A stretch of DNA of 64,000 nucleotides from Psammoneis japonica (taxonomy: Eukaryota): positions 434,001 through 498,000 of the forward strand of contig QPGO01000004.1 in NCBI GenBank assembly GCA_008632985.1. The letters run 5' to 3'. The notes under the pieces are model-generated. The model was given only the letters and a program-made list of their open reading frames with translations. It was not told where the DNA came from and did no database searches. Below are positions 5,896 through 51,523 of this stretch, piece by piece (within the stretch, counting starts at the first letter, position 1; every line of letters begins with the position of its first letter). The position numbers were made by a program, and so were the translations under genes.

Positions 5896-6399
5896 GATTT
5901 AAGATAAGGAATTAGCAAGAACAGTAGTTTTAATGTCTCTTTGTGAGGGTGGATATCACAGAATATTTTGAAAGATCAAGCTAAGACGGTTACACGGTCA
6001 CTGAACTTGGCGAATGAGGAGTGTCGAAGATCGATGATGCTCCTTCTTCTCAACGAGAACTTGTTTTCATTCGTGATGGCACCAGGCAGTGACGTGGACG
6101 TGATGACGTCATTATGTCTTCTTGGACATTCGGGGGTACCGCCCTAGCCCTAAAGAAGTGCAAATCGAATCGTGACGTTGGGTTGTCAGAATGCATGCCT
6201 CCCATCTCTTTTATCCCCTTTCACAGCCTCCCTCGCCTCCTTGGTGTACTCTGTTGCTGGCCAGCATTTGTCTCCGGCTGCTTTTTGCCTCGTGCTCCAA
6301 CGCAGGCTTCTTTGACTCCCGATCTCTGCTGGAGCGTGGACCAAATCCCACTCCGCGGCCTGTGTGCAGCAGAGTTGCCGACCCCTGCAGAGACCACCG

Positions 6400-7150
6400 C
6401 CATGCTCTCTGCTGTCGCTTCCCATCACACAAGACAACTCTCTCAGTTCATGCCTTCCTCCCAATGATTGGGTCACTTGCTGGTCCTTTTTGCTCCAACA
6501 AGAACTGGCCTCATCAGCACCCACCAGACCATGACCATGAACCTCCTGCTGATCTCTTTTCTCACTTGCCCCCCAAACACACCCTGCCATGTGTTGGTGT
6601 GTGCTTTGTCCCTGCACATGACACTGCCTCGCCAGCCACTCACACTTGTCTGGCCATCAGTGCAACCATCCTGAAACCACCTCCCAACTCAGCTCTTGGC
6701 TTGCCTGCCCTGCCCTGCCACCAACTGCACTGCACCGAGGCACACCATGCAAGCACCAAGAGAAAGTTTCATGGCAACCATGAAACTGGCCAAGAAGGCC
6801 CAACAATGATGTCTTCTCTCAATGATGCAGGCGTGCACCTTTTCCATTCACCACTGACCATTTTGGCTCTGCTCTTGGACACTTTGTGCACCACATCTCC
6901 TTTTCGATGATCGGCAGCACCGCCCTGTGCTGCTCATGCCACCTGCACCCCCTTTGGATTCTGAGACTTGTTTCCAGCACACCCATGCCTCCTGCTGTGC
7001 TGCCTTGTCCCATCTGAAAGGCTCCCCCTGTGATGTCTTCCCAACAGCCACTGTGGTGTGGACCAAAACCTCATTGTCTGGATTTGGCATCATGCCCCGT
7101 GCATCCAACCCCTGCCAGCGGTGCTTTCAGAGGCTCATCTCTTGGTCATC
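6400..7150 (-). mobile_element. Possible highly degenerate Gypsy RT/RNase H relic
   Basis: Fragments DARGMMPNPD, GEPFRWDKAAQQEAW and RAEPKWSVV resemble the Gypsy RT thumb/RNase H linker; frames are broken. Confidence 0.3.
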
Positions 7151-9585
7151 AGATCCCTTGCTGACTGGCTTTTTTGCCATTCATCTACACTCAACAACAA
7201 CTTGCTTGCTGCACCCTTGCAACACCAAAGCCATCCCATGCCTGTGTGATGTGCCATTGCATCATGCCTGGTGGTCCTCTGTCTGTCATTCACACTGCAC
7301 CACCAGGCAACGTGGTGCGCAACCTCCTCACATGTGTGTGGTGCACAGCTGAACAGTGCAGCAGCAAACCTCATAAAAAAAACATGCCTCTTTCGTGCTT
7401 TTCTTTTTTTGACACCCAAGCCACTGGGGCCCAAGCTGGGCAGCAGGCCAGATGATGGTGGGGTCAGCAAAACTGTGTCACTGACACTTGTTGACTCCTT
7501 TTGCTTTGAAGAGAGAGAGCAAAAAGACACTGCCAAAAAACATTTGGGGGGGGGAGGTGCCAGCACCCTGTGCACAAGGAGGCTCAGAGCTTTTTTTGGA
7601 GGTTGGGGCAGTTGTTTGGCTGGGTGCATGATGCTCTGAGCTCAAATCATGTTCATGATCCCTGCCAGCTGCCAGAAGCTCTCATCTCATCTCCACCTCC
7701 TTGTGCTTGACTTCTTTGTGGAGAGCACTGCAGCAGGTGTGTGTGCAATGTATGCTCACTAACAAGCCATCAGCACAGAGGGCCATGGGGCTGATGATGG
7801 CTGATGTCCAAGGCATTGGACCATGCCTGAATGCCGTGTCTTCATGCTGAGAGACATGGACCCACACTCCTCATGTGAGGACATTTGCAAAAGATGACTG
7901 CGCTGCTCTGGCACAGCTGTCTTTGCACAATGTCCATGTTGCAGCAGCCTTTTCTGCACATGGCAGTGCACAGACATCTGGTTGGAATGCAAGCACATGT
8001 GCAATCATGTCTGCAGATGCAACTCAATGGGAGAACCAACCAAAAATGTGGGTGTCACAAATGTGTGGTGCATGGACATCTGGGTGGAATGCAAACAAGT
8101 GCAATGTCTGAAAAGTTTTGTTGCTCTTGTTCAGAATTGATCTGTGAAGAGTTTTCATCAACCAAGCAAACCAGCAAGAAGTTGGAAACCAGAATCAAGA
8201 AAATTTGGCATTGCAGTGCATGAGATCTTGATGAGATGGATTTTTTGCACCTCTGCAACACAGTCATTGTGAGCATTGTTGTTTTGACAGTTGAGCCCAG
8301 TTGGCAAAGCAGGAAATGACAATGAATGTCACATGTGACTTGCCAGCTTTTCATCTCAACAACAGCGCACGTGTGTGACAAATTGCTGACATGGTTCATT
8401 TCTGAGAACAACTGTGCAAATCAATCTCGTTCACTCTTTTTTTGTTTGCTGTTTGATTTGTGCATTTTACAATTTGGGCTTCTAACAATGTTGACTTTCT
8501 GTGCTGTGCATTCTTGTTCTCTGCTGCCTGCTCCCTCTTGTCTTTGCTCTGTTGTTTTGTTTTGTTCTCCCGTTGTCTTTTGCCATCCACAAAGCATCTT
8601 GTTGTTGCTTCTTGGCTGTGCTGGCATTGTGTCATGCTCCAATCAGTGTCTGTGCTCCAACTGGCATTGTGCTCATGTCATCAGTCTTTCAACAAGAGCC
8701 AGTTGTTTCTGCAAGTGTCGCTCATCATTGCAAGAGAGGGCACAGCCATGCCTGCCAGAAAAAAGCAGAGAAGTCATGAGTTTTGCACATTTGGCTTGGG
8801 AACCTTTTGGGATCTTGCACTCACCAACAAGAACAGCTGTTGCAACACACCTTCCATTCGTGGAAGGTTTTGGGAGAAGGTTGGCCCCAGCACCTCAGCC
8901 ATCATGAGCCAAGAACAAAGCACTTTTGCTGCTCACCTTCAAACCCAAATGGATCACATGCTTCCCCTGAAGGCCTGCAACAACTTGTTTGCATGACCCA
9001 CCCTTGATGGTGCATTCTCCAAATGCCGCAATGTGCTCAGCTCTGAGTCTGTTGTCAAAGGCAAGCCATTCGCGCATTTTGGTGTGTTCTGTCATGTTTT
9101 CCATTCTGAGTGCACACTGCCTCACAACTTTTTGTTGTTGCCACCTCTTTGACAGGTCAGCGCACCACTGCAGATTTGTGTGAGGATCCTCCTGCCAACA
9201 TTGTGTGGCCTTTGTCACAAGAAGAACAAAATGCTGCCACACGCCATTGTGAAGGAGCTCTTCTTTGTGTGCAGCATGCCACTTCGGATGATTGGCTCCA
9301 TCTGCACGGGTCTTGTTCTTTGTTCCTGTTGCCATTGAGATCCACTTGAGTCACACTTTCTTCATGCCAATGGGCAGACAGGGTGAGAGTTGCTCACACA
9401 GCTGTCATGGACTTTGCTGTCAAGGATGTGAGGCCAGCTGTGACTCGCATCATGGAGAGTGCTGTGCAGGAGGCACTCACACAGCTGATCTGTGTGAAGT
9501 GTTGTCCCCTCATTTGCCTTTTCAAGGATCACAACAATGACTTGATGGAAAGCCTCCTCCCTTGAAGATTGCCTGCCTGTCCCTG

Positions 9586-9964
9586 TGCAACATGCGTTGT
9601 CATGTGTGTGTCACACATGCACATCTGTGCATCAAATAAAATTGCACTCCAATCGCACGTCAATCGTGGGTTCGTACGAAGCACAGATCGATCACACAGA
9701 AGTGATCGGATGTCGAGAATCGCAAATGCGATCGCACGATGATGTTGACATCTTGTGTGTCAATGTCAATCGCATCCGGACAATCTGTTGTCACGATCAT
9801 ATTCTCCGAAAGGCCTTTTGTCTGTAGGAGCAGTGCAAAAGGTTTAGGCTGTTGAGAACCCGTTCGGAGAAACCCAAAATGATTGCGCAGAAACAATTCT
9901 CACAATTTTCACTTTTCGAACTTCGTTCTACTTTCGTTTGCACTCGTTCTTCAAGCACAGTGCA
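9586..9964 (+). repeat. Gypsy 5' LTR
   Basis: Colinear with 14331-14709; starts TGCAACATGCG and ends GTGCA. Confidence 0.93.
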
Positions 9965-10000
9965 TTGTGCACACACACCACAGAAGGCAACAAGTTCAAG

Positions 10001-11154
10001 ATGAAACTTTCACCTCAAGCAACCAACGCCAAAACTTCGTCAAGGCAGGAGAAAATCGTTCCTCAACCGCTGGAATCGAATTCCGAGCCGAAGAGCCTCA
10101 AACCGAGCCAGCACCTCAAGATGGAGCAACGTTTTCATCCCGAGAAGAAGGATGGCCACACCTGCACCATCAATGTCAAGCATTACAAGAAGCAAGGTGT
10201 CCCCAAGTGCATCGAATTTCTCAAGAGCTACGATCAACTTCCAGTGGGCCAGAGTGTCAGGAAGCAATCCGACAAGTTCCGCCTCATGCGCATGTCACTC
10301 CAAGGAGATGCTCCACGTGCTTTCTAGAATGCGGCAGTGAACCTTGAAGACGAATCTGCGGAAGGAAGCTTTGAGAAATGCCTGCAGCACCTCACGAGGC
10401 ATGTGTTTCCCAAGAATGCACTTTCGGTGCAGAAACGCTGTTTGCGTCGCGATCTCAAGAAGCCGGAGTCCATGAAAGCACGCGAAATTGCTGCTTGGGT
10501 CCAGGAAGTCAACGAAGACCTCAAGTTCTGTCCTCCCTTTGGGAAGGAACAGAAGATCAAGGATGACGAGCTCAAGGACATCCTCTTCAATCTTGCACCT
10601 CGAAAGTGGCAGCGTCAGTCGACCGTCCAAGGTTTCGAAATTTTGAAACATGCCCATGACGAGTTGGTTGAGTTTTTGGAGCGCCTGGAGGTCGCAGAGG
10701 ACATGTTCGATGGCATTCATGCCAAGGCTGATGGCAGTGGCGGCACTGCATCAAAAGCCAAGAGTGGTCACCAACGTGGTTCCAAAAATGGTCACCAACA
10801 TGGTGCCGAAAAATCTCAGTCCGAGAAGTGGTGCATTTCATGCGAGAAATCCACTCATGACATGGACAAGTGCTGGTCGATCAAAAGACTTGCAAAAGAA
10901 CGCCGTGGAACTGTGAACCCAATCCAAAACGGCGCCGTTCAAATGGCAATCGCATGTGGTCTCGTTGCGATGACGACAATGCCGCTCGCAAAGAAGAGTT
11001 GAATGCCACGGCGATCCAAGCAGTTCAAAAAATGCTCAAAGCGAGTTCCTCATACAATGACAAGAAGCGCAAGAGCAAAGGCTGTGATTCTGACACCCTT
11101 GACGAGGAGAATTTTCAGTTTGAAAAAATGACATGCAGTGATTCTGAGGAATGA
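10001..11154 (+). pseudogene. gag: Gypsy gag (in-frame TAG at 10325, frameshift near 10900)
   Basis: ORFs 9938-10327 and 10337-11002 are in the same frame; degenerate zinc knuckle WCISCEKSTHDMDKC. Confidence 0.75.
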
Positions 11155-11217
11155 CTTGCACCGCAAGAGGAGTCTTGCGCTCTGCTGGACATTGGGAAGC
11201 CCAGAAAAAGGGCCAAA

Positions 11218-14200
11218 GTGATTCATGCCAGTCCAGTGGTCATCGCTTGCATGAACACCTCATTGGGCAAAGCGAAAAACAAGCCTCTGCACGTTCTCCT
11301 CGACAGCGGAACATCGTCAACCATGATTTTGCGCAAATTCACGTGGAAACTCAGAACCAAAGTGTCCGCCACCAAACTCTGGGAAACCAAAGCAGGGCTC
11401 TTTACGACTGACAGCAGATGCAAAATCCAATTCTCCTTGCCCGAATTTGACAAACACAAGACAATCGAAACAACGGCATGTGTTGACAACTCCCCTTCTT
11501 CTTCGAGTCGTTATGATGTGATCATGGGATGCGACTCAATGTCAAGTCTTGGGATGACATTGGACTTCTCGAATGAAGAGATTAAATGGGAAGATGCAGC
11601 TGCTCCCATGAAGAATGTTGACACACTCTTCGATGCCGATGCATTCAAGTTGATTGCCGATCATGTTGAGGAATCTCGTGCAGTGATCAGTCTTAATGAC
11701 AGGGTCAATCGGATCCTTGACTCAGACCATCACGCTGCAAACCTCAATGATGTGACTGCAGCAGCTGCCCATCTAACTCCTGAAGAGCAGAAGCAGCTGA
11801 ACTTCCTCTTAAAAAGATTTGAAAACCTTTTCGATGGTTCTCTGGGCAAATGGACCGGGAAACTGGTGGATTTGAAGTTGAAATCGGGCGTGAGTCCGTG
11901 TCATGCCAAACCATTTCCCGCACCACAAGCCTTGGAGGCGACCACTCGTAAAGAGGTTGAAAGACTGTGCAAGCCAAAGGTCTTGAGAAAAACAAATTGT
12001 TCTGAATGGGCAGCTCCATTGAGTCCGATTTCCACCCGACTTTCGAGAGCTGAATAAGAGGCCAATGCGCGCTCCATTTCCTCCACCCAACATTCAGGAC
12101 ATGCCACAGAAACTTGAAGGTTTCATGCATGCAACATCTCTAGATTTAAATGTGGGACATTGTCATGTCGAGCTGATGCCAAATGCACGTCGTTTGTGCA
12201 CAATCGTCATGCCTTGGGGCAAATGTGAGCACTGCAGACTCCCCATGGGAATCTGTGGAGCTCCAGACATTTTTCAAGAGCACATGAGCGAGCTCATGGC
12301 AGGTCTGGAGTTCATCAGAACTTGTGTTGACGACACATTGTGCCTTGCAAAAGGTGATTTTCAAGACCACCTCAAGAAGCTTGAGACGGTGTTTTTACGC
12401 CTGGAACAAGCCGGGTTGAAGGTCAATGCCGAGAAGTCCTTTTTCACTAAACCCGAAGCAGACTGTCCAGGCTTTCATGTCACCCGCAATGGCATCAGCC
12501 CGATTCCGAAAAAGGCAGAAGCAATTCACGCGATCACAACTCCCAAAACTCGCAAGGAATTGCGACGCTTTGCAGGTGTGATCAACCACTGTCGAGACAT
12601 GTGGCCTCGACGATCTCATGTTTTAGCTCCTTTAGCCAAACTCACTTCCACGCAAGTAAAGTGGCAATGGACCGAAACAGAACAAAAAGCCTTCGAAAAT
12701 GTGAAGCGCATCATCTCCAAAGATGTGCTGTTGTCACATCTGAACTTCAACGCACCCTTTGAGACATGTGCCGATGCCAGCAATTCTCAATTGGGGGCGG
12801 TCATCATGCAGAAAAACCGACCAATTGCCTTCTACAGCCGCAAGCTGAATGGAGCGCAGACGCGTCACACCACAATGGAAAAAGAACTGTTGTCCACAGT
12901 GGAGACGTTAAAAGAGTTCCGAAATGTGCTGTTTGGCCAACAGACAAATGTGCACACGGATCACAAGAATCTCACACATAAAAATTTCACAACGGACAGA
13001 GTCATGCGTTGGCGTCTAACAACAGAAGAATGCAGTCCCAAAACAACATGCCTTGAGGGCAAGGCAAATGTTGTCGCAGATGCGATCAGCCGACTTGCTG
13101 TGAAGAAAATAGAACCTGTGGAAACCCTCAGCACAGAAGAGTCAGCTGAAAAGGTCCCACCAAAATCCTGCGACAATGTCTTTCCGTTAAATTACAAAGT
13201 TCTTGATTGCGAACAAAAATGGGACAAAGACATTCTCTCCAAATTGTCAAACAATGCGTTTCATGCGAAGACTTTTCGTGGAGGCGAGCGAGACCGGTTG
13301 CTCATGTGTCATGAGGACAAAATTGTCGTCCCAAGGACGTTGCAAAAGGCAGTGATAGATTGGTGTCATGCGCACCTTCTTCACCCTGGCACAAATCGAA
13401 CAAAAGAAACAATCTCACAACACCTGTGGTGGTCCACCCTGCGTGAAGACATACGAAAATGTGTGTCGAGATGTGAGACGTGCCAAAAATTCAAGAAGAA
13501 ACACAAGAAATGTGGACATTTGCCTCCCAAGTGCGCAGAATCCGTGCCATGGGAACGACCATGTGTGGACCTCATTGGGCCATACAAAATGCGTCGTAAG
13601 GGAAAGAAAGAACCCCCAGTCCTGAAATGTTTGACAATGATTGATCCGGCAACCGGATGGTTTGAAGTTGTGGAAATCCCAAATGAGGAATCCATGACTG
13701 CAGCTGGACTGTTAGAACGAACATGGTCAAGCAGATGTCCTTGGCCATCGTCAATTGCATGTGACCGTGGAAGTGAGTTCATCGGACACCAATTTAAAGA
13801 AATGGTGCAAGATGATTGTGGCATTAAAGTCAAGCCTGTGACTGCACGAAATCCACAAACAAATGCAATTGTTGAACGCGCACATCAAGCACTGGGGAAC
13901 ATGCTCCACACATTTGATTTGCAACACACACCTCTAGATGCTGAGGATCCCTTCGCTGGAATGCTGTCAGCAGTGGCATTTGTGGCACGTTCTGCGCATC
14001 ATGCCACTGCGCAAGCTGCACCAGGACAACTGGTCTTCAACAGAGACATGACATTTAACGTCCAACATGTCGCAGACTGGAAATCAGTCCAGCAGTGAAA
14101 ACAAGAAATCACAAACAAAAACAACGCTTGAGAGAATGCTTGACGTGCTCCTCACACGTGCAGAGCAGGAGAAAAGACACTGCTCAAGAAAGACTTGCAA

Positions 14201-14300
14201 AAATTAGAACAGCCCTGTGTTGGACCGCATGTGATGACAACGGCACACACTGATGGCACAGTGCAGATCAAACGCGGTGACGAACAATGCCGTTTAACGA
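11218..14300 (+). pseudogene. pol: Gypsy pol (protease, RT, RNase H, integrase), disrupted
   Basis: Protease LLDSGTS; RT RLPMG and TCVDD; RNase H DASNSQLG, AFYSRKL, TDHKNL; integrase HLLHPG...CETC, DRGSEF, NAIVER. Frame break at ~12030-12065 and stops after 14096. Confidence 0.93.
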
Positions 14301-14330
14301 CTGACTCTAATGTGCAATTAGGGAGGCGAG

Positions 14331-14709
14331 TGCAACATGCGTTGTCATGCGCGCATTGCACATGTGTGTCTGCATGTCAAACAAAATCATGTTCCAATCA
14401 CACGTCAATCGTGGGTTCGCACGAAGTGCAGATCGATCACACAGAAGTGATCGGATGTCAAGAATCGCAAATGCGACAGTGCGATGATGTTGACATCTCA
14501 TGTGTCAACATCAATCGCATCCGGACAATCTGTTGTCACGATCACATTCTCCGAAAGGCCTTTTGTCTGCAGGAGCAGTGCAAAAGGTTTAGGCCATTGA
14601 GAACCCATTCGGAGAAACCCAAAATGATTGCGCAGAAATGATTCTCACAATTTTCACTTTTCGAACTTTGTTCTGCTTTCGTTTGCACTCGTTCTTTGAG
14701 CATGGTGCA
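14331..14709 (+). repeat. Gypsy 3' LTR
   Basis: Direct repeat of 9586-9964, preceded by the PPT and followed by TSD CCTG. Confidence 0.93.
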
Positions 14710-16149
14710 CCTGAACCTGCTAGCAGCAATGTGAATGACAACAATGGCAAGCACACTGGGATAAAAAAATCATTTCATCATGAGTGTCCCATTGTCCCAT
14801 TTCAAGCAGAAACATTGGCAGAGCAAGGACATTGTCCACTTTACAAAGCAACATGACATTGTCATCTCATCTGCTGCAAAGCATTGGATGGAATCTTCAA
14901 CAACACCAGTGACCCCAACTCCAGGCACAGGCTGGGGTGTCAAATGTTGAGTGTTGCTTTTGATGAACCTGCTGCCATGGCTGCTGCCATGTGAGCAGCA
15001 AGCGGTGCACTGGCCATGGACAACATTCCGGCTGGACCAACTCTTGAGTTTTTGTTTTGTGATGAAGCACCAGGCAACAAGAGCAACCTTGTCCCTGCAG
15101 ATCACATTGATTTCCCCCCACCATCTGTGTGACCCATGGACCTGGGTGATGAAACAGGCGATGATGATCATGACAACAAAGATGAAGTGTCAGATGACCA
15201 ACAATCTGCAGAACCTTGAGGTTGAGCACAACAGCAGCAGCATTCTCTGTTCTCCACCCGCCTTTGACTGACAGTCTGTCTTTTTTGCTGCAACATTGAA
15301 CAAGCTGTTTTGCACCTCACCACACAATGGCCAACTTCATTGAAATTCACATGTTTGTGAAAATCTCTTCAAAGTCATGCATTGGCTCTGTCATCCTCTC
15401 TGGCTTTCATGCAGATTGATCCACCCCTCATCCATCCCCACATGGCACAGGTCACATCTGCTGACATTTCTCTGTTGTTTTGAGTTTGGTTGGGCCACCT
15501 TTCCCATTTTCACAATGAGGAGACAAGGCTCCACACTGGCTGCTGTTGTGGGATGCCTGATCAATGGCGCGCGCCATTGGCTTCATGTGCCAAGTCAGAA
15601 AAAGAAATTCATTTTCCATCCACTCTGACATGGGCAGTGCTGCAGTCAAGAGCACATGTGCCTGGTTGAGCAAGTCACTCAAATGACTCAGGCAAGTCCC
15701 CATGTGGACTGCTCCATCATGACAAAATGATCCGGCACACAAACAAACCATGGTTTTTGCCTGCTGAAAAATTGCCATGGGTTGCAACACATGATTTGCA
15801 GTTGGAATGCATGCAACATTGGCGCTCTCTTTCAGATTGCACCAAAAGTCCAGCAAACCTCTCCATCTCAAAGAAGTGCTGCAGACTGCAGAAAGTGCCC
15901 ACATGTGTGCCATCAGCCCTGCCATGGCACCCACTGCCAACAACAGCCAGACTTCCACATGGCTTGTCATCCATGATGCAGCACAAGTCTTTGTCTCCAT
16001 CTGCCAAGTCTTTTGCCTGGCTTCAAAGGTTTTAAGTGGTTTCCTGCCACTTTTCTGCTTGTCCATCAACTCATCATGCAGCAACCAGTCCTCGCACAAT
16101 GTGCCCAGCATCATGGATTCACTCACATTTGAGATGCCAGCTTTGGTGG

Positions 16150-17200
16150 AATCTGTCATTTTTCCTTGTTCATGCTGCTGGCAAGCTTTCAGGTGAGCTT
16201 TGCAGATCCAAACCTTTCCATCTCTGTGTTCCTTGGTGTGTGGACAACTGGCACACTCAACCTTGGATTGCCCCTGCTGCCAAAATGAACTTGACATTTC
16301 TTGGAAGTCTTGTTGGCCTTCTTTCCTTTTGAAACCTCTGGTTTGCAGTCTCTGGCTTTGGTGTTCTTCTGTGTTAACTCCAGAAGCTTCTCTGTGGCAA
16401 CATTTGAGGAGGAGTTGTCCTTGCCAAGAGAGCTGGTGCCAGTTTGGTGCTGAAACAAAGGAGGTGCCTGCAATGAAGGGGTGGCAGAACCTGTTCATCA
16501 CCAACCATTTCTTCTCCTTTTTTTGACCTTCACCACAATGGGTTTGTCTGGCTCCCATTGTTTGTTGCTTTGAGTGAATGCCACCCATTGCCTTCAAAAG
16601 TGGCGCAGCTTCCTTGCAATGCTCTGCAGTTTTTGGATGTGTGCAGGTGGTGCCAGCTTGAGGAATGTGGTCACAAATGGCTTGTTTTTTGTTTTTTGTC
16701 AAATGGAACAGTCAATGACTGAACAGATTTTGGAAGCATCATCAACTCCAAAGCAATGCTGACACATGGGTCAGGGAAAGAAAGACCAGCTGTTGCCAAC
16801 AACTGAGTGCTGCACAGCAGCTGACAAAGAAGTGCTGCCAGTGGTGCACTGTTTTTTGCTTTGAAATGGCACCAAGGAAAACAATGAAGACCCCACATTG
16901 GAAAGGGTTGGCAGGTCATGTTCACAATCAGTGAATCTGCCACAGCCTCATTTTTTTTAGTCCAACTTGTCCATTGTTGTGCTTTCTCATGAGAGCAAGG
17001 CTTTGTCATCAGCAATGCTGCCACCCACAAAATTGTGAGCAACTTGCAGCTTTGTTTTTTCTGTGCAGTTGGATTGTTGGCAGCCAGCCAGGGGCTTTTT
17101 TGCAATTGAAGACATCTTGGCAAGGAGTGGACAGATTGTCCAAAAACAGCCATTGTTGCTTTTGAATCTTGACAACAGTTGTTGATTGGACAACAAGAAA
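16150..17200 (-). mobile_element. Possible degenerate piggyBac/IS4-like DNA transposase relic
   Basis: Weak fragments (AVADSLIVNM, PKTAEHCKEA..GGIHS, KKW..NRF, Cys-rich CASC...WICKAH..C tail) suggest a piggyBac-like transposase; not verifiable by eye. Confidence 0.25.
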
Positions 17201-20200
17201 AAATTCAAATTTTGCTTGATTTGATCTCAACCAGATCACAAACTCAATTTTTGCAATGCTTCCTTGTTGTTGTCAACTTCAAAGACAACACAGTGAGCAC
17301 AAACAGAGTGCACAGCACAGCAACACACCTGGCAAAGCTTTGGTGTTTTTCACACTCTGCAAGCAAAGACTGTTTCACACTCATCTGCCACAACAGCAGT
17401 CTGAGCTTGGCACAGCTGCCAGGGCTCAACACAAATGCCGCTGCAAACCCAAGTCAAGCACACACAACCCAAACATGTTGTCACTTCAGGGCACTGACAA
17501 GGCCAAACCATCTTTGCTTGCATTGGCAGTTGATGTGGCTGACTCAGAGAGCTGAGTTTGTGACATGCACAAGGCACTCCATGCTGTGTGGCCAAAGGAG
17601 AACAACAGATTGGCTCCAAAGGCATGCTCGGTGCTGCTGGCAAGCTGGCACTGCATCACGGGCAGGCTGGCAAGCAACATTGCAGACAAACAAGCCAAGA
17701 CAAAGCAATGAAGACTGAATCTCATTTTGTGTCACCACAATGCATGGTGGGAGAACCAGCGCAAGAAAAAATGGGCATTGACCACGACAATTTGTTTTTC
17801 AGCCATGCAAATCCATCTCGCTGCATGTCACATGGGGAGGGGCAGTTGTTGCTGCCAGAAAAGGTCTTAAAAAAGCTGATGCAAGGGGAAAAAACTCAGT
17901 GTTCAAAGAAATGGGTTGGTTTTGGCACATCATGAAAACACTTGCTGGCAACTTTGACAAAAGCGTGCTGGGTTTTGACCCTTTGGACAATTGTGGGGTG
18001 CACCAAAGATGATGCGGTGGGCTCCAGGAAAGCTGGAGTTGACAACCAGATTCAGACATTGAAAGCATTTAAAACAAAAGGAGCTGTTCTTGCTTGTGTG
18101 TTGCCTTCTCCACTTTGCAGCAGAGCTGGGAGAACACAGAATTTGGGTGCAACAAGAAGATGGGAAAGAAGTGCACCACATCAAAGGCGTGCTTTTCTCA
18201 AAAGCAACAGACAGATGTTGCACAAGTGGTGCAATGTGTGTGCACCAAAGCTCTGTTGAAATGCAGCAACCCTTTCAACACTTTGTTGCTTGGCATGTCT
18301 TTGGAGAAAGCAATCACTGGCAAATCCAAGCTGGCAGATTTTGCCCAGAATTGACTCAACCACAAGCACTCAATTAAGAGGCTTGCCTCAATCCAGCCAG
18401 GTGCAATGCTTGTTGGGGAAAAATGTCATGCCATTGCTGCAGAGGTTGCACAAAACAATGCTGGGTTGTTTGTTGGAGCTGCCAATTGGAAAAGCACCTG
18501 CCACGACAGCCACCAAATGCAGCGCCAAATCCAGTGGCAGGAAACTTCAGCCCACAAAGGACCAAGTCAAGCATGAAGAGTCATGTGCAGCAGAGCAAAA
18601 CAAGCCATGTGGGGTGACTGAAGAAAAAAGGATGACCGCACACACCCCTTTGTGCCAAAAAATGTGACACAACTCAAGCTTCATCACAAGACTTTGAGAG
18701 GTGGACATGTGTCTTCTTGACAGTTGCCCAGCTGACACAGCAGCACCAGCATTGAAAAAAAACTTCATGAGCTGTGACTTGCTCTCATTGGATGACCCAA
18801 TGACAGCACCAAATCTTTTGCTTCACCTGCATCTCTTTCTTTTGAAACATTTGACAAAAGCTTCAGAGCAGAGCAGAAAACGCAATGCTGAAATGACCTT
18901 GGGCAACCTTGCTGCCAACTCTCATGGGCATTCATCCAAAAATTCCCCCTCAACACAATTGCACAATTCTCAATCAGTCAATGCAAGAGTCATGTTGTGC
19001 CAGCCAGTTTTTGGTGGAACAAAAACAAAGCAGGTGGCATCCTCCACATTGTTGGGAAAAGAGGGGTCAAGTGGTGAAATCATCAACAGAAGAGTGAGTG
19101 CAGTGGAAAGAATCTGCTGCACCTTGATGACTCTGATTTCTGGCTCCATTTCATCACCTGCAAAAAATGACAAAAGAAAATCATTTGTTTCCTTCTTGCA
19201 CAGTGCACAAAAGAAAAATGCAGCAGATGTGTGTTGGGAAAAATTCAGGCCGAACATGTGCAGTGGAGTGGGTTGGCTCCAGCCCAACACAACCAGCACA
19301 CTTTGCTTTCATGCATCTCCAAAGCAGCAGAGCAGGACAAAGACTTGTGCACACGACAGTCACTCTCCTTGGTGCATCTGGCCCAAGACAAAAAAGCCTC
19401 GTGCAAACTGTGAGAAAGACGACACATCTTCATGACAACCAGCCATTCCTTTTGCTTGCTGCCAGGCTGTTTTTGGGCTTTTTTGCACATTGCATTTTTT
19501 TGTTGCCTCTTTTTCTCTTCCTCAGATTGCACAGCATCAACAAAAAATTGGGAGATGGCTGTTCTTTGTCAGATTTTGCTCCCACAAAATGCACAGTGAT
19601 GGAAGAAGAATGGACACTGTGTTTGCTTGACCATGTGCATTTCTCACCTGGGATGAGACAACACATTGGGGCAGTGCAGGTGATGGGAGCAGGCAGGTGA
19701 CTTCTCACATGCTCGCGCACAAGGCAGAGCTTGAGCGGGAGAGATGAGCACCGGCCAGGAGCAACTGTGCCAGAGCCAGCAAATGTGTGTGCCCTTTCTT
19801 TGCTTTTTTTGCCCCCCTGACTCACACAAGTGCTGGTGTGTGTGTGTGTGTGTGCACGTGCATGACGACACGCTTGCCCCCCCTTCTCTCCCAAGGGGGG
19901 CGGTCCTGCCTCAGGACAAACAAAAAATTTTCTGTTCAGCCAGCAACTCTCCACATGGCTGACCACTCCAGGTTTTCTTTTCACAAAGTCTGTGGCAGGA
20001 GCTTGTGACACATGTGCAGGCAGGGGGGCGGCTCTGCAAAGAAAAGCCTTTTTGCCAAACAGAGCGGCAGGTGCCTCCTCAGCACACCTCTTGACATTTT
20101 GCTTTGGGGGGCAGCCTGCAGTTTCTTCAGCAGCACAACAACTTTTTCCATCACCTCACATCCACTTCTCAACCTTGAGCCAACCCTCCAGGCCCATGGC

Positions 20201-20545
20201 CTTTTTGACATCCATGCTTTGAGTCACCACAGACCCAAAGCCAGTCTCACAGAAGAGAACAACTCGTCGCAGCCTAGCCACGCAAACCACGCAGCGAGCA
20301 GGCAGGCCAGACAGCGCCAGACAACGTCGGTCGGGCCGCGGGCGGTCGTGAGTCGTGACGCACGCACGAATTCTCGGGCCGTTGCGACGCGATTGGATGA
20401 TTGATTGATGAAGAGTGAATCTCAGCAATTCTGTTGTTACACCGCAGAACGACGCGAATCTCTGAATGCGGAAGAAAGCTAATCAATTGGTTCATTAGAA
20501 CGGGGGCAAGTAATTAAAAAAAAGTTATCAGAAAAAAAAAGTAAG

Positions 20546-35501: not shown

Positions 35502-36284
35502 TTTTTTTCTTATTCTCGACTAGTAATTCACAGTCAAGCGCAAAAGAGTATTACATAAACTTGAAAGGCAACAACAATGCAGAATTGCTTGCCGATACCG
35601 AATGCCTGAAAAGAAAGAGTTCTGGTCTCAACATTGTTTGAACGAGAAAACGTCACGAACAGGCGGCACGTGGCACCTCGTACAAATTCTACACAGGTTT
35701 GGAATTTTGAATGCCACGTTGACGATGGATGGAGCACGTCGGCTTGTGAGCGGACACAGCACAGACCACATCTTCAGGTTCGCTTGCTTTCACATCATCG
35801 CATCCATCACGCGAAAGATGATCATTGTGACAGCGCTTTTTCATTTTTAGGCAGGGCCCTGGGGGATGACACTCTCTCTTACTTGCAGGTCTTAGCGTGC
35901 ATTGCCACTCTCTGGCATGCAGCCACCCACTGCAAATTGCAAATCACTTGACACTTTTTGTGTGTGTGCGTCAAAGTGCGTTTGATCATGCCAAACAGGA
36001 AAGCTTCCTTTTGCTGGTGGCTCATTTCGCACAACAACAAAAGGCCGCATGGGAAGGTGCGCAATCTTCTTGCACACTCTGCCTTGGGTGGTGGCCAAGC
36101 ACAAAACACACCACAACACCAGATCACCATGGCCACAAACACTGCGCACCAACCATGTCCATGTGCATGGACCAAATGCCAAAGCATGGTGAGATGTTGA
36201 GCACTGTGATGTGGAAGAAGAGAAGAAGGCCCTCTGGGAACAAAATTCTTGGTTGTCCAGGAAAGCCCAGCTCTGTGGCACAGC

Positions 36285-37558
36285 TGTTGGAACATTGCAG
36301 TGAGAGGCAGCAATTGAAGGACAAAGAACAGACAGCATTGCAGTGAAAGACACACTGACCATTGTGGATGACACATGGTGAATTTGTGCTGGCAAGTCGG
36401 GTTGAGTGGCGGGTCTTGTGCCAGCACTTTTTAGCTTCTGCACCTGGTTGACATGACAACAGAGAGCATGCCAAAAGAGCCAGAGCATCCATCAAGTGAC
36501 ACTGCATTGGAGAAGGACAAGGCAATCTGGGGCAAGCAATGCAATCACTGTGCAAAACAGAGCATGATCTGCAAAGCACAGAGGGTGGCACAAAGGTGTT
36601 TGGTGCAATCCAAGAGTGCACAAAGGCCATCAATCACAAGGTTGAAGGAGCAATGGAGTTTACAAGAGTTGCAAAGGAGTGAATGTGGCAGTGCTCCTGT
36701 CACAAATTCTCAAGTTGATCTTGCTCAATGCCAATGAGAAGAGGCACTCACATCTCCAGGTGGTCAAGCCTTGGAAGCAGCTGGCACTCATCACACATCA
36801 AGACAAAGGAGAGGCACTCAAAGATTGTTGCAGTTGGCCAATGAGCATTGTTGAGATGGTGGAAATGTCCTGGTGTGGTGGAATCATTTTGAAAGAAATT
36901 GCTGAGAAAGAAGATGGGTTCAGCAAGGATGCTGACAATGCCCAGAACAAAGAAAGGAACAAGTTGTTAGCAGCAATGCTTGTGGAAGGCACCAAGGAAC
37001 ATTGGCATGTCTCAACAGACCTGCATTGGCAGTTTGCACTGGGGGTTGACAGTTGTCCCAATTCAGCCAAGGAGGTTTTGCAGGTGTTGGGCATGCATGA
37101 GGCCAACAAGAAACCTGAGGGCACAAGTTTTGCACAAAACAAGAAGAAGCAGATCAAATGCTGGAAATGCAACAATTTTGGGAATGTGAAAAAGGATTGT
37201 CCTTTGCTCAACAATGACGCTGATGATTCATCAGCAGAGTCAGATGGTGCAGGCCATGGGAATCAGTGGAACAGTTGAAGTGGCATTTTGGATGGCATGG
37301 TTTCCACGTGTCATCCTCCTGTGCTCAATGCACACATGAGGCCAATCAATCAACAGCTTGTGCAAAAGAGTGTGTTGGAACATTGGGGTGAGACTGAGAG
37401 GCAGTTTTTGCAGAACAAACACAGACAACATTGCAGTGACAGACATGCTGACAATTGTGGATGACATGGTGAATTTGCACTCACAACTTGGGTTGAGTCA
37501 AGTTGTGGGTCTTGTGCTCACTTTTGAGCTTCTGCACCAGGCAGTTGACATGACAACA
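36285..37558 (+). mobile_element. Short gag-only Copia-type LTR element (~1.3 kb), degenerate
   Basis: Diverged direct repeats 36285-36461 and 37373-37558 (TGTTGGAACATTG...ATGACAACA), AAAAGAGTG before the 3' copy, and internal QFALGVDSCP...IKCWKCNNFGNVKKDC gag zinc knuckle. Confidence 0.7.
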
Positions 37559-38869
37559 GTGGTTGACAGCATTGGGAATGTGTTTGCAAGCCAGATGGTG
37601 AGATCTGGGTTGGTGAGACCAAGTGTGTGCCAGTTGGCAAGCCACAAAACTCTGACAATGGTGGTGGACAAAAAAGAAGAAGCCAGTTGAGGTTTTCATT
37701 CGAAACAAAGTGGAGGAAGTCAAGAACAGGACAGGCATGAAGAGTGCTCACATCTTTCAAGCACTCCAGAAAGGCACTGTCCCTCACCAGCCGCAGAACA
37801 GAGAGTGGTGTGCTTGATTGCTTGCAAAAGAAAGAGCAACACACACCACTCTCATGCTGAGCATGCAGACCCAGTGACAAAGATTGTTGCTTCTCAAGTG
37901 AAGGATGTTGTGCTGTCAGTGAAAACTGCAGCTTGCCATGTGGCATCACATGCATGAAAAAAAGAACAGGCCAAGGCAGTGTCTCTGACATGACCAAGAA
38001 AGAGCATGGCCACAAGTTTCTATTTGAAGAATCAATGACAGAGAATGAGGCATGCCACAGCTGTTGTGGCTGCATGGTTGCCCTGCTGTTGGTGAGCCAA
38101 ATGGAAACAGAAATGTTGTGCAGGGGAGCAAGAATGAGCTTGAGGGCTGGCAGGCTTTGGTGGATGAATTTGACAACTTCAAACAGAGTGGTGAACCACA
38201 AGGCGGACCTGGTGGCAACACCAGTTTCATCAACCAGTGAGGCCCAAGGAAAAGACAGCATGCGTTCAATGCCATTGTGCATGGTTTGGGTGTCTGTTGA
38301 ATGCTGGAGATGTTTCTGTTGCAGAGCACCCAATCAAATGCACTGACAGAATGCTGCTGTAGAATGTTGCAGCTTTGACAAGAGCTGAGACTGCCTCCTT
38401 TGGCTTCAGTTTCTTGCCACTGTGGATGTGGTGTGGTGGAAACAAAAGCAAACAATCACACACAACACCGTGCTTTTGCAATTCTCTTGTTTGATGATGC
38501 ATCTAAATGCATGCCTTGTGTGATGTGTTGTCAAAAGCTGTTTTCTGAGCTGGCAGCCAAGATGGCACGCATGCTTGGTCACATGAATGCCTGCAATGTG
38601 CTGACCCCAGTTTGGGCATCACAAGTGGGGCCAGCACTGCCCACCTCAGCAACATCTTTGATTGAGCTGCCAAAGCCCAGCTCTAGGAGCAACTTTGGCA
38701 TGCTCCAACTGAACTCAAGCAAGAGGACATGCAGCTCCAAAAATGAGGTGCAAGCAACTCTTGAATGGCGCATCTGAAGACATGGCTGTGCACATGTCAA
38801 ATGACTTTTGTGGTGACTCATCCCACCAAGAGTGCATTGAACAGGCTAGAAAGTTTGTGGGTGCATGAG

Positions 38870-40450
38870 CATCAATGGCTGTTCTTCTGAATGGAGCCTT
38901 GTTTAACTCTTGAGTGCTTGGGGTGTTGAAAAAGAGCTGTTGTGATCACAACAACCATCTCAACCTGGGGCGCCAACCTGGAAGATGGAGGTGGCAAACC
39001 TCCTGCAAGAGGATGAGGATGGCCAATCCTCTCCTTCATCCAGACAAACTTCCAGACAAATTTGGGCCACCTCAACTGACATTTGAGGCTGGACCCAGGG
39101 ATGTGGTGAACCCCTTTGATGGGATGGCTGTCCACAGCAATGGGGTGGTGGGGCTGCTGAGACTGTTCAGCTGACCACCCAGCAGGTTGCAGCTGACCAA
39201 CACAGAGGTGTGCCACTTGCCTTCTGATTTGCCAAGAACTCCTGCTGCAGCAAATGAAGTTTCTGAATCTGACAACCTGTGGTGGGCCATTTGCCCTCAT
39301 CCTCCTCAGGGCAGCTTTTTCCATTGTCCTCATGCTGGTGGTTTGAGCAAAGACCTTCTGGATCTTGCCATCCCCCCCCCCTCACCCTTGCAGAAGCCCA
39401 GAGATGGCAGTGCACAAGCACCTTGTTGACAGATCTCTGGGTGAAGTCAGAGCCAGAGAAGTGCTTGGAGTGTTCAACACCAATGCTTGCCCATTTGCCA
39501 GCATCAATGCAGCCAACAAAGCCACCAGAGCCAGGCACCATCTGCACATGCTTCTTGACAAACCATCAAAATCTGCGGCCCTGATTTCCAGTGCTTTGCA
39601 CATGAATCCCTCAATGCACCTTTCACACCAGAGGTTGTTCATCTCAGTGCTTGTGTTGTTGGCTGTCATCAGCAATGCAGTGCATTGAGTGAGTCAGGGC
39701 CTGCTGAATGACATTGAATGCAAGTTCAGCAGACCCATGGTTGGCTGCAGGGGGCTTGTGGGACAAGCCTGTGGCTGGCACCATGGATGAGCTGTGCTGC
39801 CAACTGTTCCCTGCAAAATTCAAAGAAAAATGTGAGCACATTGGATTGCATTCATGGCATGGAAAGAGACAAATGTCTCTCATTGGTTTGCTCACATGTG
39901 TGACAACAGGTCATCAAAAGTGAAACACCTCCTGCCATGCTGAGTGGCATGGGCACCTGGGCCAACATCTTGCAAGATTTGGCAAAATGAGTGTCACAAA
40001 TTGACTTGCCACAGTTCTGCCATGGCTTCACATTTTAACCCAGCACTCCACTTGCTGGCCCTGCTGACCAGGACATTCCAAGACTGCAATTGGCATGCTC
40101 AGCTTCTTGAAATGACCATGCAGCCCAATCTCATCTGGCAGATGCACACACCAGTTGAGCCACTTTCTCCCAAAGTTTTGACTGCACGACTCAGCGAACA
40201 CACAAAATTCATCCAAATCAATGTCACCCCAATGCCTGACACCAACCACCCAAATCAGGTGTGGAATCCAAGACAGCAGTGTGTCTTTGCTGGCACTTGT
40301 GGAGCTCTTGACTGGCATGCTTGGGCAGAGCCATGCTTTTGCATCAACCCAAGAACCTTGGCCCATGCTCTCAAGTGATTTGAGATGATGGGCTGTGAAA
40401 GTGGCCTTGGCAGCAACACAAAAATGCAATGATCTCAGAAGCCATTGCCT
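38870..40450 (-). mobile_element. Possible degenerate DIRS/Ngaro-type RT-RNase H relic
   Basis: Fragments FVGCIDAGK, LSDSET and HHIPG resemble RNase H motifs of tyrosine-recombinase retroelements; frames are broken. Confidence 0.3.
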
Positions 40451-40945
40451 TTGGAAACAGAGCTCTCAACTGAGTGTGCAAGCATGAGTGCATTGTGTCC
40501 TTGGAGCACTTGTTCATGATGGTGGTTTGTGGTTTCCTTGTTGTTTAGATTGATGCAAATGGCCAAGGACCAGTTGTTGGTGTTTCCAAAGGCAAATTGT
40601 CCTGTTGCTTGGGCACTCTCACCTTTGCTTGCTGCAGCCAGCACTGAATGATGTGGGCTTGATTCTGCCCCAAGTGCAAGGTGACCATGACCTTGGTGCA
40701 GAAGTCATGGCCACAAGCCTGGAGGATGTTGAAAGTGCTGTTTTCTCCACTGAGTGCGCTTGTGCCTCCTCCCCACTTGTGTCAGGACAACATCATTGTT
40801 GTGCTGTCATTGCCTCCTGTCATTGCGGTCCTTGTTTTGTGCACACAAATGTTGTTGGTTGGTGTCAGAGGGAGAAAATGTGATGGCAGCATCTTTCTCC
40901 ACAGCCTGGTGCAAATGAGCAATGAATGGACAATTTCCTCTTTAA

Positions 40946-41374
40946 CCCTTCAACCACCATGGGAGCAAATCTCCATGGGTGGAGATCTGCTCTGCTTGCA
41001 GATGTGTGACGTGTCATGCACTTTTATGACAATGTGATGTACACAGCATAAAAATGTCATGTCCTGTGCAATCTGCGCAAAAGCACCGCATTTGCTCCAA
41101 GGGTGTGGCATTGTTGCTCTGTTTGTGACAGCAATTGATGACAACCGCCATTGTCAATGGTTGAGATTTAGTTCCTCTCTGTTCTAAAAGTCGACATCGA
41201 ACTTTCTAAATTACAAAAAGGTTGCCCCCAGATTTTTGGCAAATGCGCGTTCCAAAACAAAATCATGCGAACAAAATGTTGTGCACATCTGAGGTTGCTT
41301 CATTTGCTGTGTTTGTGATGCAAGCAAGCAAATCTCCACCCGTGGAGATTTGCTCAAGTCTGGTGGTTGAAGGG
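40946..41374. mobile_element. piggyBac-type MITE (429 bp)
   Basis: Perfect 14-bp TIR CCCTTCAACCACCA / TGGTGGTTGAAGGG, subterminal palindromes (GCAAATCTCCA..TGGAGAT), flanks TTAA (40942-40945) and TTGA (41375-41378). Confidence 0.8.
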
Positions 41375-41421
41375 TTGACAACCAATGAGAGGTCTGAACT
41401 CTTCCTGCACCCCTGATCCTG

Positions 41422-41698
41422 TGATGGAAATTGAAGGCAAATGGCAAGAATTCAAACAATGACTCCTTGCTGCTGTCTAAATGGCAGATGAGTCTCCGCT
41501 CAGAGACAGTCACAGGAGCCGAAGGACGTGCAAGTCAAGTGTGATCGGGCTACTGTCATTGTTCTTGTGAGCCTTGTGGCTCGAAAGCAAACCACATCGC
41601 GCGTGAACGCGCGGAACTAAAGCACACAAAACTGTGCACGGTAAACTAAACAGCGCGCGATGCTTCGCGCGCACCCAAATCCTGTTCAAATCCTGTCA
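41422..41698 (-). repeat. Copia 3' LTR (TpA-converted copy)
   Basis: Direct repeat of 48257-48532. Confidence 0.95.
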
Positions 41699-44600: not shown

Positions 44601-45750
44601 CTGATCCTCGAGTGTGTTGACAAACTCTTTGTCCGTCTTAGTGCCGTAGACGTCAGTGACGGTAGACTCGGTGCCAACAAACAGTTGGGCGCTGGTGCAA
44701 CCAGAGTCGACGGCCGGGGTGTCGGCACAAACGGTGTCAGTGGCGATGGGCTCGTTGCGGCGGTGCACATTAAGGGCGGGGTTGGGTGATTTGCAGGCCT
44801 TGCGAAGGTGTGTACCGGCGGGCATGCGGGCGCACTGCGTGGTGCAGTCAAAAGTACGACGGACCGCATCGGCAGGTGGGAAGCCAAAGTGAGGCCGAAG
44901 AGACTCGAAGGGGGGGTCCTTGGGCTGTACAGTGCGCTCCGGAGGTGGAACATCATCGCCCTGGGGGCCAATCGCATGCAGATGACACTCGTAGAACACA
45001 TCGTCGTTCGGAATGAGGTGATCATCGAGGGCGGACGCGTGATCGGCAGACAAGGAAGCGGACATGATGGTCTCGTTGACAACGACACGATGACGGCAGT
45101 TGCCGCACTCGTCAAACAGGTTGGCAGTGGGATCGTCCTGCAGGTCAGAGATCGCGTCGCACCACTGGTCGTCGTCAGTGACAGAGTGATCGAGGACGGA
45201 AGGGTCCCATGTGTCATCACCGGTGAGGATGACATGGGGCAGGGTGTCCCATTCGGCGTCAGTGTAAGGTCGCATGGCAACACAAGGCAGGCCAGCCTTG
45301 ATGTCAATGGGGATGACATAGCCATCAGGAGTGGCAATGCGTTGCAAGCCGTTGGGCACCTTGACAGAGCGATCGTTGACATCCTGTTTGCACCATTCGA
45401 GCTGGCCGCAGGAATGGATGGTCTTGCCCTTGCCCGTGCATGCGCACTGATGGAGCATGGCGATGACGGGACCACGCTGGGTCTCAACAACGGCACCAGC
45501 GGTGACAATGGGGATGTCCACCAATTGATGATCGTCAATGCCCTGAACGTCGACTTGGCGAGAGGTGCGTGCAATGACGCGAACGTCGTCGCCAGCAATG
45601 CCGCCGTTGGCCCCACGATCGACTAGAGCGCCAGTGCGTGTGGAGCGATGAGCAGAAGCAGAGCAAATGACATTGTGGTTGTCAACGCGGCGGTGAGTGT
45701 GACCGTTGAGTTCTGTGTCATCTGCAGAAGCTGGCGGGGCAGAGGAAGCG
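41646..45750 (-). pseudogene. pol: Copia pol (protease, integrase, RT, RNase H): open frame but with many Tyr->Cys/His changes
   Basis: Protease LVDRGANGG (~45600-45625); integrase ATDTV, DRAQVE, HQNFAE; RT HKARLVA and YVDD; RNase H SEFVAA, GDNKSV, NPADILSK. Confidence 0.93.
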
Positions 45751-48256: not shown

Positions 48257-48532
48257 TGATAGAAATTGAAGGCAAATGGCAAGAATTCAAACAATAACTC
48301 CTTACTGCTGTCTAAATAGCAGATGAGTCTCCGCTCAGAGACCGTTACAGGAGCCGAAGGACGTGTAAGTCGGTATAATCGGGCTACTGTTATTATTCTT
48401 GTGAGCCTTGTGGCTCGAAAGCAAACTACATCGCGCGTGAACGCGCGGAACTAAAGCACACAAAACTGTGCACGGTAAACTAAACAGCGCGCGATGCTTC
48501 GCGCGCACCTAAATCCTGTTCAAATCCTGTCA
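48257..48532 (-). repeat. Copia 5' LTR (largely unconverted copy)
   Basis: Direct repeat of 41422-41698 that retains TpA. Confidence 0.95.
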
Positions 48533-48539
48533 TCCTGAT

Positions 48540-51280: not shown

Positions 51281-51523
51281 GGGTTGACAGTGCCAGAGCG
51301 GCTGGGTGGAGCGAGGATGAGGGCTTCATATAAAAGCAGCAAACGAAGACTGTGAGGAATCATTTCAATCGAATTACTGTAGTCCGAGTGCCACAAATAA
51401 TCCAGATTTGTCGCGCTGACACACGAGGCACGACTCAAGGCCGCGCCACTCTGATGTGCACGTCTGCGACGCCTCGAAAGCAAAAGCGCCAGAATCATCC
51501 AGAAGCTCTCGCAAAGTCTGAAA

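Follow-up and report, generated by a model that had tools for sequence, protein, structure and literature searches.

To our knowledge, natural conversion of A:T to G:C at a single dinucleotide of chromosomal DNA was unknown until a preprint of 2026. This preprint (Mettrop et al., bioRxiv 10.64898/2026.01.13.699255, April 2026) describes TpA hypermutation in integrated viral DNA of the chlorarachniophyte Bigelowiella natans. It reports that, in some mutation-accumulation lines only, two integrated regions of viral origin acquire changes at ~6e-7 per site per generation, a de novo rate ~1000-fold above that of the genome being one mark of the process; that the changes are almost solely A>G/T>C, all of these falling on TpA and giving TpG or CpA; and that reverse transcriptase and DDE domains are over-represented in TpA-poor coding sequences. 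Its authors propose an ADAT2-like adenine deaminase as the agent (10.64898/2026.01.13.699255). Here, we describe a closely similar footprint in a 64-kb stretch of the genome of Psammoneis japonica (contig QPGO01000004.1, positions 434,001 to 498,000; hereafter the window, and all coordinates are window positions). It contains a complete but dead Ty3/Gypsy retrotransposon (the Gypsy element) and a complete Ty1/Copia element (Copia), each flanked by long terminal repeats (LTRs).

The B. natans report rests on one species and two viral insertions (10.64898/2026.01.13.699255). The words “LTR”, “retrotransposon”, “diatom” and “stramenopile” have 0 occurrences in its Results and Discussion, and its supplement may list transposable element (TE) targets. 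Apart from this preprint, we did not find a TpA-to-TpG/CpA process in the literature, in diatoms or elsewhere. Fungal repeat-induced point mutation (RIP) changes C to T, mainly at CpA, and leaves DNA enriched in TpA and AT (PMC2621366, PMC7882544). Diatoms carry DNMT4, a RID-related protein of unknown function (PMC9998398), and Ty3/Gypsy elements of diatoms (GyDi) are already known (PMC2806351).

Our preferred reading, to which we give a probability of roughly 0.8, is post-integration, TpA-specific A:T-to-G:C hypermutation of a dead Ty3/Gypsy element in a diatom-like nuclear genome. The direction of the changes, their dinucleotide specificity, the action on both strands, the post-integration timing, the tract structure and the restriction to TE domains are demonstrated by the results below.

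Conserved residues lost from the Gypsy polyprotein

The original prediction, made from the letters of the window, was that Gypsy pol had been disabled by systematic missense changes, above all of tyrosines. A protein search with this pol yielded 2210 relatives at E<=1e-10, and the best 80 of the 120 relatives listed (52-58% identity) were used for the alignment. Columns were taken as conserved when at least 80% of the 80 relatives had a residue in common. Among the 380 such columns, Gypsy pol agrees at 305 and differs at 75. The losses fall overwhelmingly on tyrosine: only 3/21 conserved Tyr are retained (Y>C 11, Y>H 6, Y>F 1), versus 302/359 for all other residues (Fisher p = 3e-11). Conserved Ile is retained at 9/22 columns. 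Retention of other residues is complete or nearly so: D 18/18, F 18/18, H 8/8, C 7/7, W 12/13, P 25/26 and R 27/29. Consistently, the codons of the pol frame (12023-14098) include 3 for Tyr, 26 for Cys and 30 for His.

The two motifs on which the prediction was built, TGT GTT GAC GAC at 12323 and GAG ACA TGT GCC GAT at 12761, have the letters and positions that it gave. The first encodes CVDD in place of the catalytic YxDD of reverse transcriptase (RT), in which all 80 relatives have Y, followed by I (57) or L (23). The tyrosines that it called conserved are largely so: both in GYYH in 80/80, those of GKYEY in 80/80 and 79/80, that of RYTT in 80/80, and that of EEYSP in 66/80. None of the 80 relatives has Cys or His at the tyrosines of YxDD, GYYH, RYTT and GKYEY, so the first of the two outcomes named as refuting the prediction did not occur. 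At the three positions of ETCAD taken as changed from EIYTD, relatives have I (76/80), H (63) or Y (17), and T (78/80), in that order. The claim of a lost Tyr in VHTDH fails: 51/80 relatives carry H at that position and 27 carry Y, and the site is not a mutated one.

A change of TA to TG or CA alone accounts for 37/75 of the differences at conserved columns, compared with 4 for CG to TG or CA and 10 for any C>T/G>A. Of the 40 changes that any A>G/T>C could produce, 37 lie in TpA, although the DNA of relatives leads one to expect just 21% there (p = 5e-22). Changes outside TA were much rarer, so the second refuting outcome did not occur either, and CpG decay can be set aside as the cause of the tyrosine losses, as had been argued. 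In the pol frame, the TpA observed/expected ratio (obs/exp) is 0.17. AA/TT is not depleted (obs/exp 1.17-1.25), and the pol region is richer in GC (0.48) than relatives are (median 0.41).

Whether reverting TG and CA to TA raises profile scores had been proposed as a test. We used a guided in-silico reversal scored against a hidden Markov model (HMM) of the 80 relatives; scores can only rise under this procedure, so it is the contrast between processes that counts. From 1093.5 bits for the observed Gypsy pol, TA-type reversal raised the score to 1257.6 bits (+164), the partly overlapping AT-type to 1181.0 bits (+88), CG-type to 1114.8 bits (+21) and GC-type to 1105.6 bits (+12).

That missense changes inactivated the element was borne out by the conserved residues lost; that they did so alone was not, since a frameshifting deletion and three stops, each TGA, are further lesions of pol. 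Residues 3-230 of one relative (P0001) align by tblastn to 11335-12018, where the deletion begins; ~29 nt are missing from RT, which takes out the segment between SEWAAP and RF..DFRELNK. The stops interrupt the last ~60 residues of pol, and the first of them aligns with Arg in relatives. All three being TGA agrees with the direction of the changes, for TAA and TAG are erased by the process and never made by it, and only TGA can arise, e.g. from CGA. Because the process removes both of these stops and makes neither, the openness of the pol frame is no evidence of constraint. The older flanks of the element have 1.8 TAA plus TAG per kb, against 18 per kb in the background, and frames of at least 100 aa occur there at 4.1 per kb, against 2.5 per kb in genic DNA. 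Long open frames in hypermutated DNA are therefore meaningless. Overall, the systematic missense pattern of the original prediction is confirmed and its interpretation is supported as essentially right.

LTR pairs and TpA-poor domains

Both LTRs of one retrotransposon insertion are identical when integrated, and differences between them thus date from later. The target-site duplications (TSDs) of both elements are intact (CCTG for Gypsy, TCCTG for Copia). Over 380 ungapped columns, the two Gypsy LTRs differ at 46, of which 45 are transitions, and these represent 29 events: 16 double CA/TG differences, 5 of TA versus CA/TG, 6 of CG versus TG/CA and 2 others. The double differences are most simply derived from an ancestral TA, changed to CA in one of the LTRs and to TG in its partner. 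The Gypsy LTRs have lost ~90% of their TpA and mostly retain CpG (24 and 21 sites), and nearly all of the 12% divergence between them is due to the TpA process. The 5 one-sided survivals of TA are all in the 5’ LTR.

The Copia LTRs show the direction of change. TA in one LTR faces TG or CA in the other at 12/15 differing columns; all these losses are in the 3’ LTR, and the converse, TpA lost in the 5’ LTR, occurs at 0/17 sites. The remainder consists of one CpG-type change and one A/G difference adjoining a 1-nt indel. Reading from the 5’ end, the 5’ LTR and ~500 nt of leader are untouched, and Copia is hypermutated from ~47,700 through to its 3’ LTR; at ~47,700, within the element, the TA density falls from 17-20 to 0-5 per 250 nt. 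These results show that the direction is TA to TG/CA, that both strands are affected, that the changes followed integration and that the tract ends inside the element. They speak against slow, even decay across the entire island, as well as against simple triggering by homology. The protein is affected in the same manner: compared with 60 of the 120 relatives listed, Copia pol retains 11/34 conserved Tyr (Y>C 14, Y>H 6), versus 573/620 other residues. A polarity that spares the 5’ end is suggested by both the Copia 5’ LTR and the TA survivals in the Gypsy 5’ LTR.

Across the window, TA obs/exp is 0.37 and bimodal: 0.4-0.7 in genic DNA and 0.00-0.28 in 6001-20000, 36001-47000 and 49001-51000. 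In this one window, the TpA-erased domains extend over 6248-20274, 35894-47365 and 48511-51712; they are sharply bounded, 6-14 kb long, and their longest TA-free runs reach 1,900 nt, against a median TA spacing of 18 nt. The summed frequency of the four pyrimidine-purine (YR) dinucleotides is steady, 0.244 in hypermutated domains and 0.239 in the background. The background values of 0.040 for TA and 0.056 for CG drop to 0.0047 and 0.029 in hypermutated domains, and that of TG+CA (0.142) climbs to 0.210; with the sum constant, the lost TA and CG must have become TG and CA. Gypsy and Copia keep CG at obs/exp 0.65-0.97, with TA already at 0.05-0.28, and therefore methyl-CpG decay is slower here than the TpA process. 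In the older flanks of the Gypsy element (6248-9585 and 14710-20274), most CpG is gone too. The survival of TA, relative to its background density, depends on context (TTAA 0.44; TTAG/CTAA 0.30; GTAT/ATAC 0.04; ATAT 0.023). RTAY is the worst affected, and depletion of ATAT is 20-fold beyond that of TTAA.

Within these domains, 7001-9000, 15001-20000, 36001-41000 and 49001-51000 have TpA obs/exp of 0.00-0.09 and CpG of 0.02-0.20. Presumably, this TpA- and CpG-free DNA consists of old transposon remnants that received both LTR elements. Pfam identified no family in nine long frames of the TA/CG-free domains or in the Copia gag, and blastn among the four old flanks revealed no common repeat, only short internal matches.

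Features of the Gypsy and Copia insertions and of the domains around them (window positions; obs/exp, observed/expected)
Feature	Position	Strand	Remarks
TpA-erased domain around Gypsy	6248..20274	.	1-kb bins, TA obs/exp 0.00-0.18 vs 0.4-0.7 outside
TSD CCTG, left copy	9582-9585	+	read from flanks
Gypsy insertion, complete but dead Ty3/Gypsy	9586-14709	+	LTR pair and TSD CCTG
Gypsy 5’ LTR	9586..9964	+	TG...CA ends; 6 TpA left
gag-like frame	10328..11002	+	one C-x2-C-x4-H-x4-C zinc knuckle, read from sequence
Protease and RT start, frame +1	11155..12057	+	RVP_2 weak, 17 bits, below cut-off
Frameshifting deletion	12018..12023	+	tblastn; 4 nt in place of relative’s residues 231-240; frame +1 to +2
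pol frame, RT-RNase H-integrase	12023..14098	+	691 aa stop to stop; 677 aa from ATG 12065
RT catalytic motif CVDD (TGT GTT GAC GAC)	12323..12334	+	relatives: Y[IL]DD
Three in-frame TGA stops, at 14096, 14129, 14141	14096..14143	+	integrase C-terminus
Gypsy 3’ LTR	14331..14709	+	TG...CA ends; purine-rich tract 5’ of it; 1 TpA left
TSD CCTG, right copy	14710-14713	+	read from flanks
Older domain that received Copia, left part	35894..41421	.	TpA and CpG both erased
Ty1/Copia element, complete	41422..48532	-	RVT_2; TSD TCCTG
Copia 3’ LTR	41422..41698	-	12 of other LTR’s 17 TpA read TG (7) or CA (5)
Copia 5’ LTR	48257..48532	-	17/17 TpA intact
Same older domain, right part	48533..51712	.	TpA and CpG both erased

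The Gypsy element has the features by which Ty3/Gypsy elements are recognised, namely TG...CA LTRs with a short TSD and the domain order protease-RT-RNase H-integrase (with RVP_2 below its cut-off). Pfam finds RVT_1, RT_RNaseH_2, RT_RNaseH, Integrase_H2C2 and rve in its pol frame, in Ty3/Gypsy order, of which RVT_1 (41 bits) and rve (34 bits) scarcely exceed their cut-offs; a Pfam scan of the gag-like frame gave no match. The element is not autonomous, in view of CVDD for YxDD, the frameshifting deletion and the three TGA stops. The family is high-copy, since in contigs of a sequencing run (X1) the summed depth over the element is 5,400-14,700, against ~55 in the flanks, and 4,378 contigs match it. 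The places where these contigs differ across the element comprise 471 transitions and 48 transversions. No additional copies were found within the 64-kb window by tblastn with Gypsy and Copia relatives.

The host genes of the window are long, intron-poor frames. One, a cytidylyltransferase fusion, has named relatives in diatoms only (Cyclotella, Thalassiosira, Seminavis, Eucampia, Chaetoceros and Nitzschia; 62-72% identity). A ClpB/Hsp78-like gene at 57213-60540 (+) is read in four frames via short introns; the other host genes are single long frames. The border of the first TA-free domain (20275-20483) is ~50-200 nt from the start of the next host frame. Next to this domain, in DNA of normal TpA content, we observed a two-part host gene present twice, in diverged copies of inverted orientation (20483-23296, + strand, and 26012-28653, - strand); both have a C-terminal tail rich in lysine and share motifs, FSSRRGAP...C.G.K.WS among them.

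Proposed mechanism and alternative explanations

A mechanism that would account for these observations is as follows. Integrated element DNA would be attacked, with A:T changed to G:C only at TpA, and TpG or CpA would appear on the shown strand according to the strand attacked. The action would proceed in kilobase tracts with sharp borders, on transposon DNA, ending a few hundred bases from host genes, and at a rate far above that of methyl-CpG decay. Tyr codons (TAY), Ile codons (ATA) and T|A sites across codon boundaries would be removed, so that catalytic residues would be lost and frames would stay open. Slower CpG decay would then be added, leaving old transposon remnants without TA or CG. 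The agent may be a dedicated enzyme, most simply a DNA adenine deaminase that converts A to inosine, which is read as G; the hypermutation would probably serve genome defence.

Among the alternatives, the one that fares best, which we still consider unlikely, is a slow and undirected bias: silent, methylated heterochromatin may have a raised rate of TpA to TpG/CpA, e.g. through error-prone repair at WA motifs, with no dedicated targeting. It would fit with the oldest domains, which have lost CpG too, being the most fully TA-free, and with CpG-type and TpA-type differences alike being seen between the window and the X1 contigs. The Copia LTRs are difficult to reconcile with it: they are almost undiverged otherwise, lie 6.8 kb apart in one TE island, and yet have lost 12/17 and 0/17 TpA. 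Similarly, the Gypsy LTRs lost ~90% of TpA with only 2/29 events outside YR dinucleotides and with most CpG surviving. The other half of the WA motif, AA/TT, shows no deficit at all. We also considered a repair signature at WA motifs of the polymerase-eta type as such, and rejected it on the same AA/TT ratios.

Very improbable, in our judgement, is editing before integration, by an ADAR-like enzyme on RNA or a single-strand DNA deaminase on cDNA, followed by insertion of the edited copy. The 5’ U favoured by ADAR-type enzymes (cited in 10.64898/2026.01.13.699255), the high copy number of the family, and the position of the least mutated part at the 5’ end in both elements would agree with it. 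As a sole cause it is refuted by the LTRs, which come from one template and yet differ at TpA-derived sites in both elements. Editing of a single strand cannot yield both of the changes seen on the sense strand of Gypsy and Copia pol, A>G (Y>C 11 and 14) and T>C (Y>H 6 and 6), and the flanks beyond the TSDs are equally TA-free.

A technical artefact, in which modified bases of silenced DNA were miscalled and true TA and CG were written as TG and CA, would explain why the depleted domains coincide with probably heavily modified DNA and why the choice between TG and CA appears random. X1 contigs (depth ~52-65) span 6891-9585 and 14710-20523 with 38 letters differing from the window, in a run that may share the assembly's sample. 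As they reproduce the 8.5 kb of TA-free flank, TA-free sequence is present in the reads. A locus in an unrelated metagenomic record (L023:1-1518) shows the footprint too, and the Illumina mutation-accumulation spectrum reported for another alga matches it (10.64898/2026.01.13.699255). We regard miscalling as having very little chance of being the cause.

L023 was the sole locus with a hypermutation footprint (TA 0.19, CG 0.04) among 72 metagenomic loci of relatives. Its Tyr to His/Cys changes are EEYSP to EEHSP, WYH to WCH and GPYT to GPHT. This indicates that one or more further environmental genomes undergo the process, or that L023 represents the same species in the field. In the other 71/72 loci, TA obs/exp is 0.56-1.02 (median of relatives 0.75), and therefore TpA loss is not a trait of the family, with the proviso that the search patterns for the 72 loci included GYYH, which biases them against mutated copies.

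The weakest alternative is that selection or codon usage led the elements to shun UpA/TpA, a habit of many RNA viruses, and so escape RNA cleavage or sensing. It finds some agreement in the moderately low TpA of the host background (0.4-0.7) and in the median of 0.75 among relatives. It is hardly credible given that residues at catalytic and invariant positions have been lost (CVDD for YxDD), that LTRs, which do not code, and old remnants past recognition are hit to the same degree, and that the LTRs of one element differ.

Several points weigh against post-integration hypermutation at TpA as we propose it. The basis is two elements in one 64-kb window, and the speed of the process is deduced from two LTR pairs. 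The ancestral states of pol are reconstructed from relatives of 52-58% identity, and some of the Tyr losses could stem from a progenitor that was already mutated, the LTR test covering the LTRs only. The Copia asymmetry could reflect gene conversion that restored the 5’ 800 nt from an intact copy. X1 and the assembly may derive from one sample, so that the independence of the run is uncertain; it is classed as DNA by a guess (“DNA?”), and the comparison covered 5000-21000, a part without Copia. Finally, since TpA is palindromic, A>G is indistinguishable from T>C on the opposite strand; routes through thymine modification are possible, and the enzyme is only a candidate.

The X1 contigs offer a view of variation at these sites. 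We examined the 34 differences located in single-copy flanks among 40 of 520 listed, dropping the 6 inside the multi-copy element. CG faces TG or CA in 17 of the 34, TA in the window faces CA or TG in the contig in 3, 2 constitute one CA/TG double difference, and 12 are of other types. The sites concerned are 7186, 7761, 14763 and 16737-16738 of the window: surviving TpA are read there as CA or TG in X1 contigs, and one CA is read as TG. That TpA sites are polymorphic between the assembly and X1 hints at recent or ongoing activity.

Comparison with known systems

What is new here is a new host lineage and a new target class for a hypermutation system that has been described once. The near-saturated footprint on Gypsy and Copia elements of a diatom suggests that the system is widespread in ecologically dominant algae and acts as a general device against mobile DNA. 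The locus adds constraints beyond the Results and Discussion of the preprint: post-integration action, both strands, tracts ending inside elements, a rate faster than that of CpG decay, and context-dependent survival. Some consequences are practical. HMM-based annotation of TEs is weakened, with old remnants becoming unrecognisable, and dating by LTR divergence is grossly inflated, given that the apparent divergence of 12% involves just 2/29 ordinary events. A natural DNA adenine deaminase would interest base-editing research.

Compared with methyl-CpG decay, the process similarly turns a palindromic YR dinucleotide of TE DNA into TG/CA, and CpG decay is itself present in the older domains (CG obs/exp 0.02-0.2); in contrast, TAY codons are beyond the reach of methyl-CpG decay. 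APOBEC3 and ADAR enzymes likewise kill retroelements by context-dependent transitions of the deaminase type, and ADARs favour a 5’ U. Unlike their action, which precedes integration and affects a single strand of cDNA or RNA, the changes here affect both strands and the LTRs diverged after integration, so the strand-specific pattern shared by both LTRs that such enzymes would leave was not found.

The resemblance to RIP in Neurospora and other fungi is closer in form: both act on DNA after integration, produce only transitions, inactivate by missense changes and work in tracts with defined borders. They differ in outcome, for here TpA is erased and GC is raised, and the footprint of RIP is absent. 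The two Copia LTRs, identical to begin with, had unlike fates, and this speaks against targeting by homology alone. A C5-methyltransferase such as DNMT4 does not explain A:T>G:C.

The B. natans process is the nearest match. Its three sequence-level characteristics were all found in our one window: A>G/T>C specific to TpA, both TpG and CpA as products, and bounded domains of mobile DNA that spare host genes. In both cases A:T>G:C occurs at TpA and gives TpG or CpA according to strand, the targets are foreign or mobile DNA in sharply bounded regions, and TpA is depleted with a gain of CpA and TpG. Judging from the preprint's main text, the two cases differ in host, a diatom (Stramenopila) versus a chlorarachniophyte (Rhizaria), in targets, LTR retrotransposons versus integrated viruses, and in extent: the TA fraction of 0.0047 here is near saturation, compared with 3.3% left in their region from a nucleocytoplasmic large DNA virus.

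Tentatively, and with somewhat less than even odds, we propose that diatoms and chlorarachniophytes have in common a TpA-specific, adenine-deaminating defence, possibly ancestral or repeatedly acquired in SAR (Stramenopiles, Alveolates and Rhizaria). It would act after integration, in kilobase tracts, on retrotransposons and viruses, independently of duplication and starting away from the 5’ LTR and leader; together with methyl-CpG decay, it would bring all silenced DNA to a final state free of TA and CG and rich in TG/CA. If this is true, fungal RIP would have in the shared defence a eukaryotic counterpart whose chemistry is the reverse of its own.

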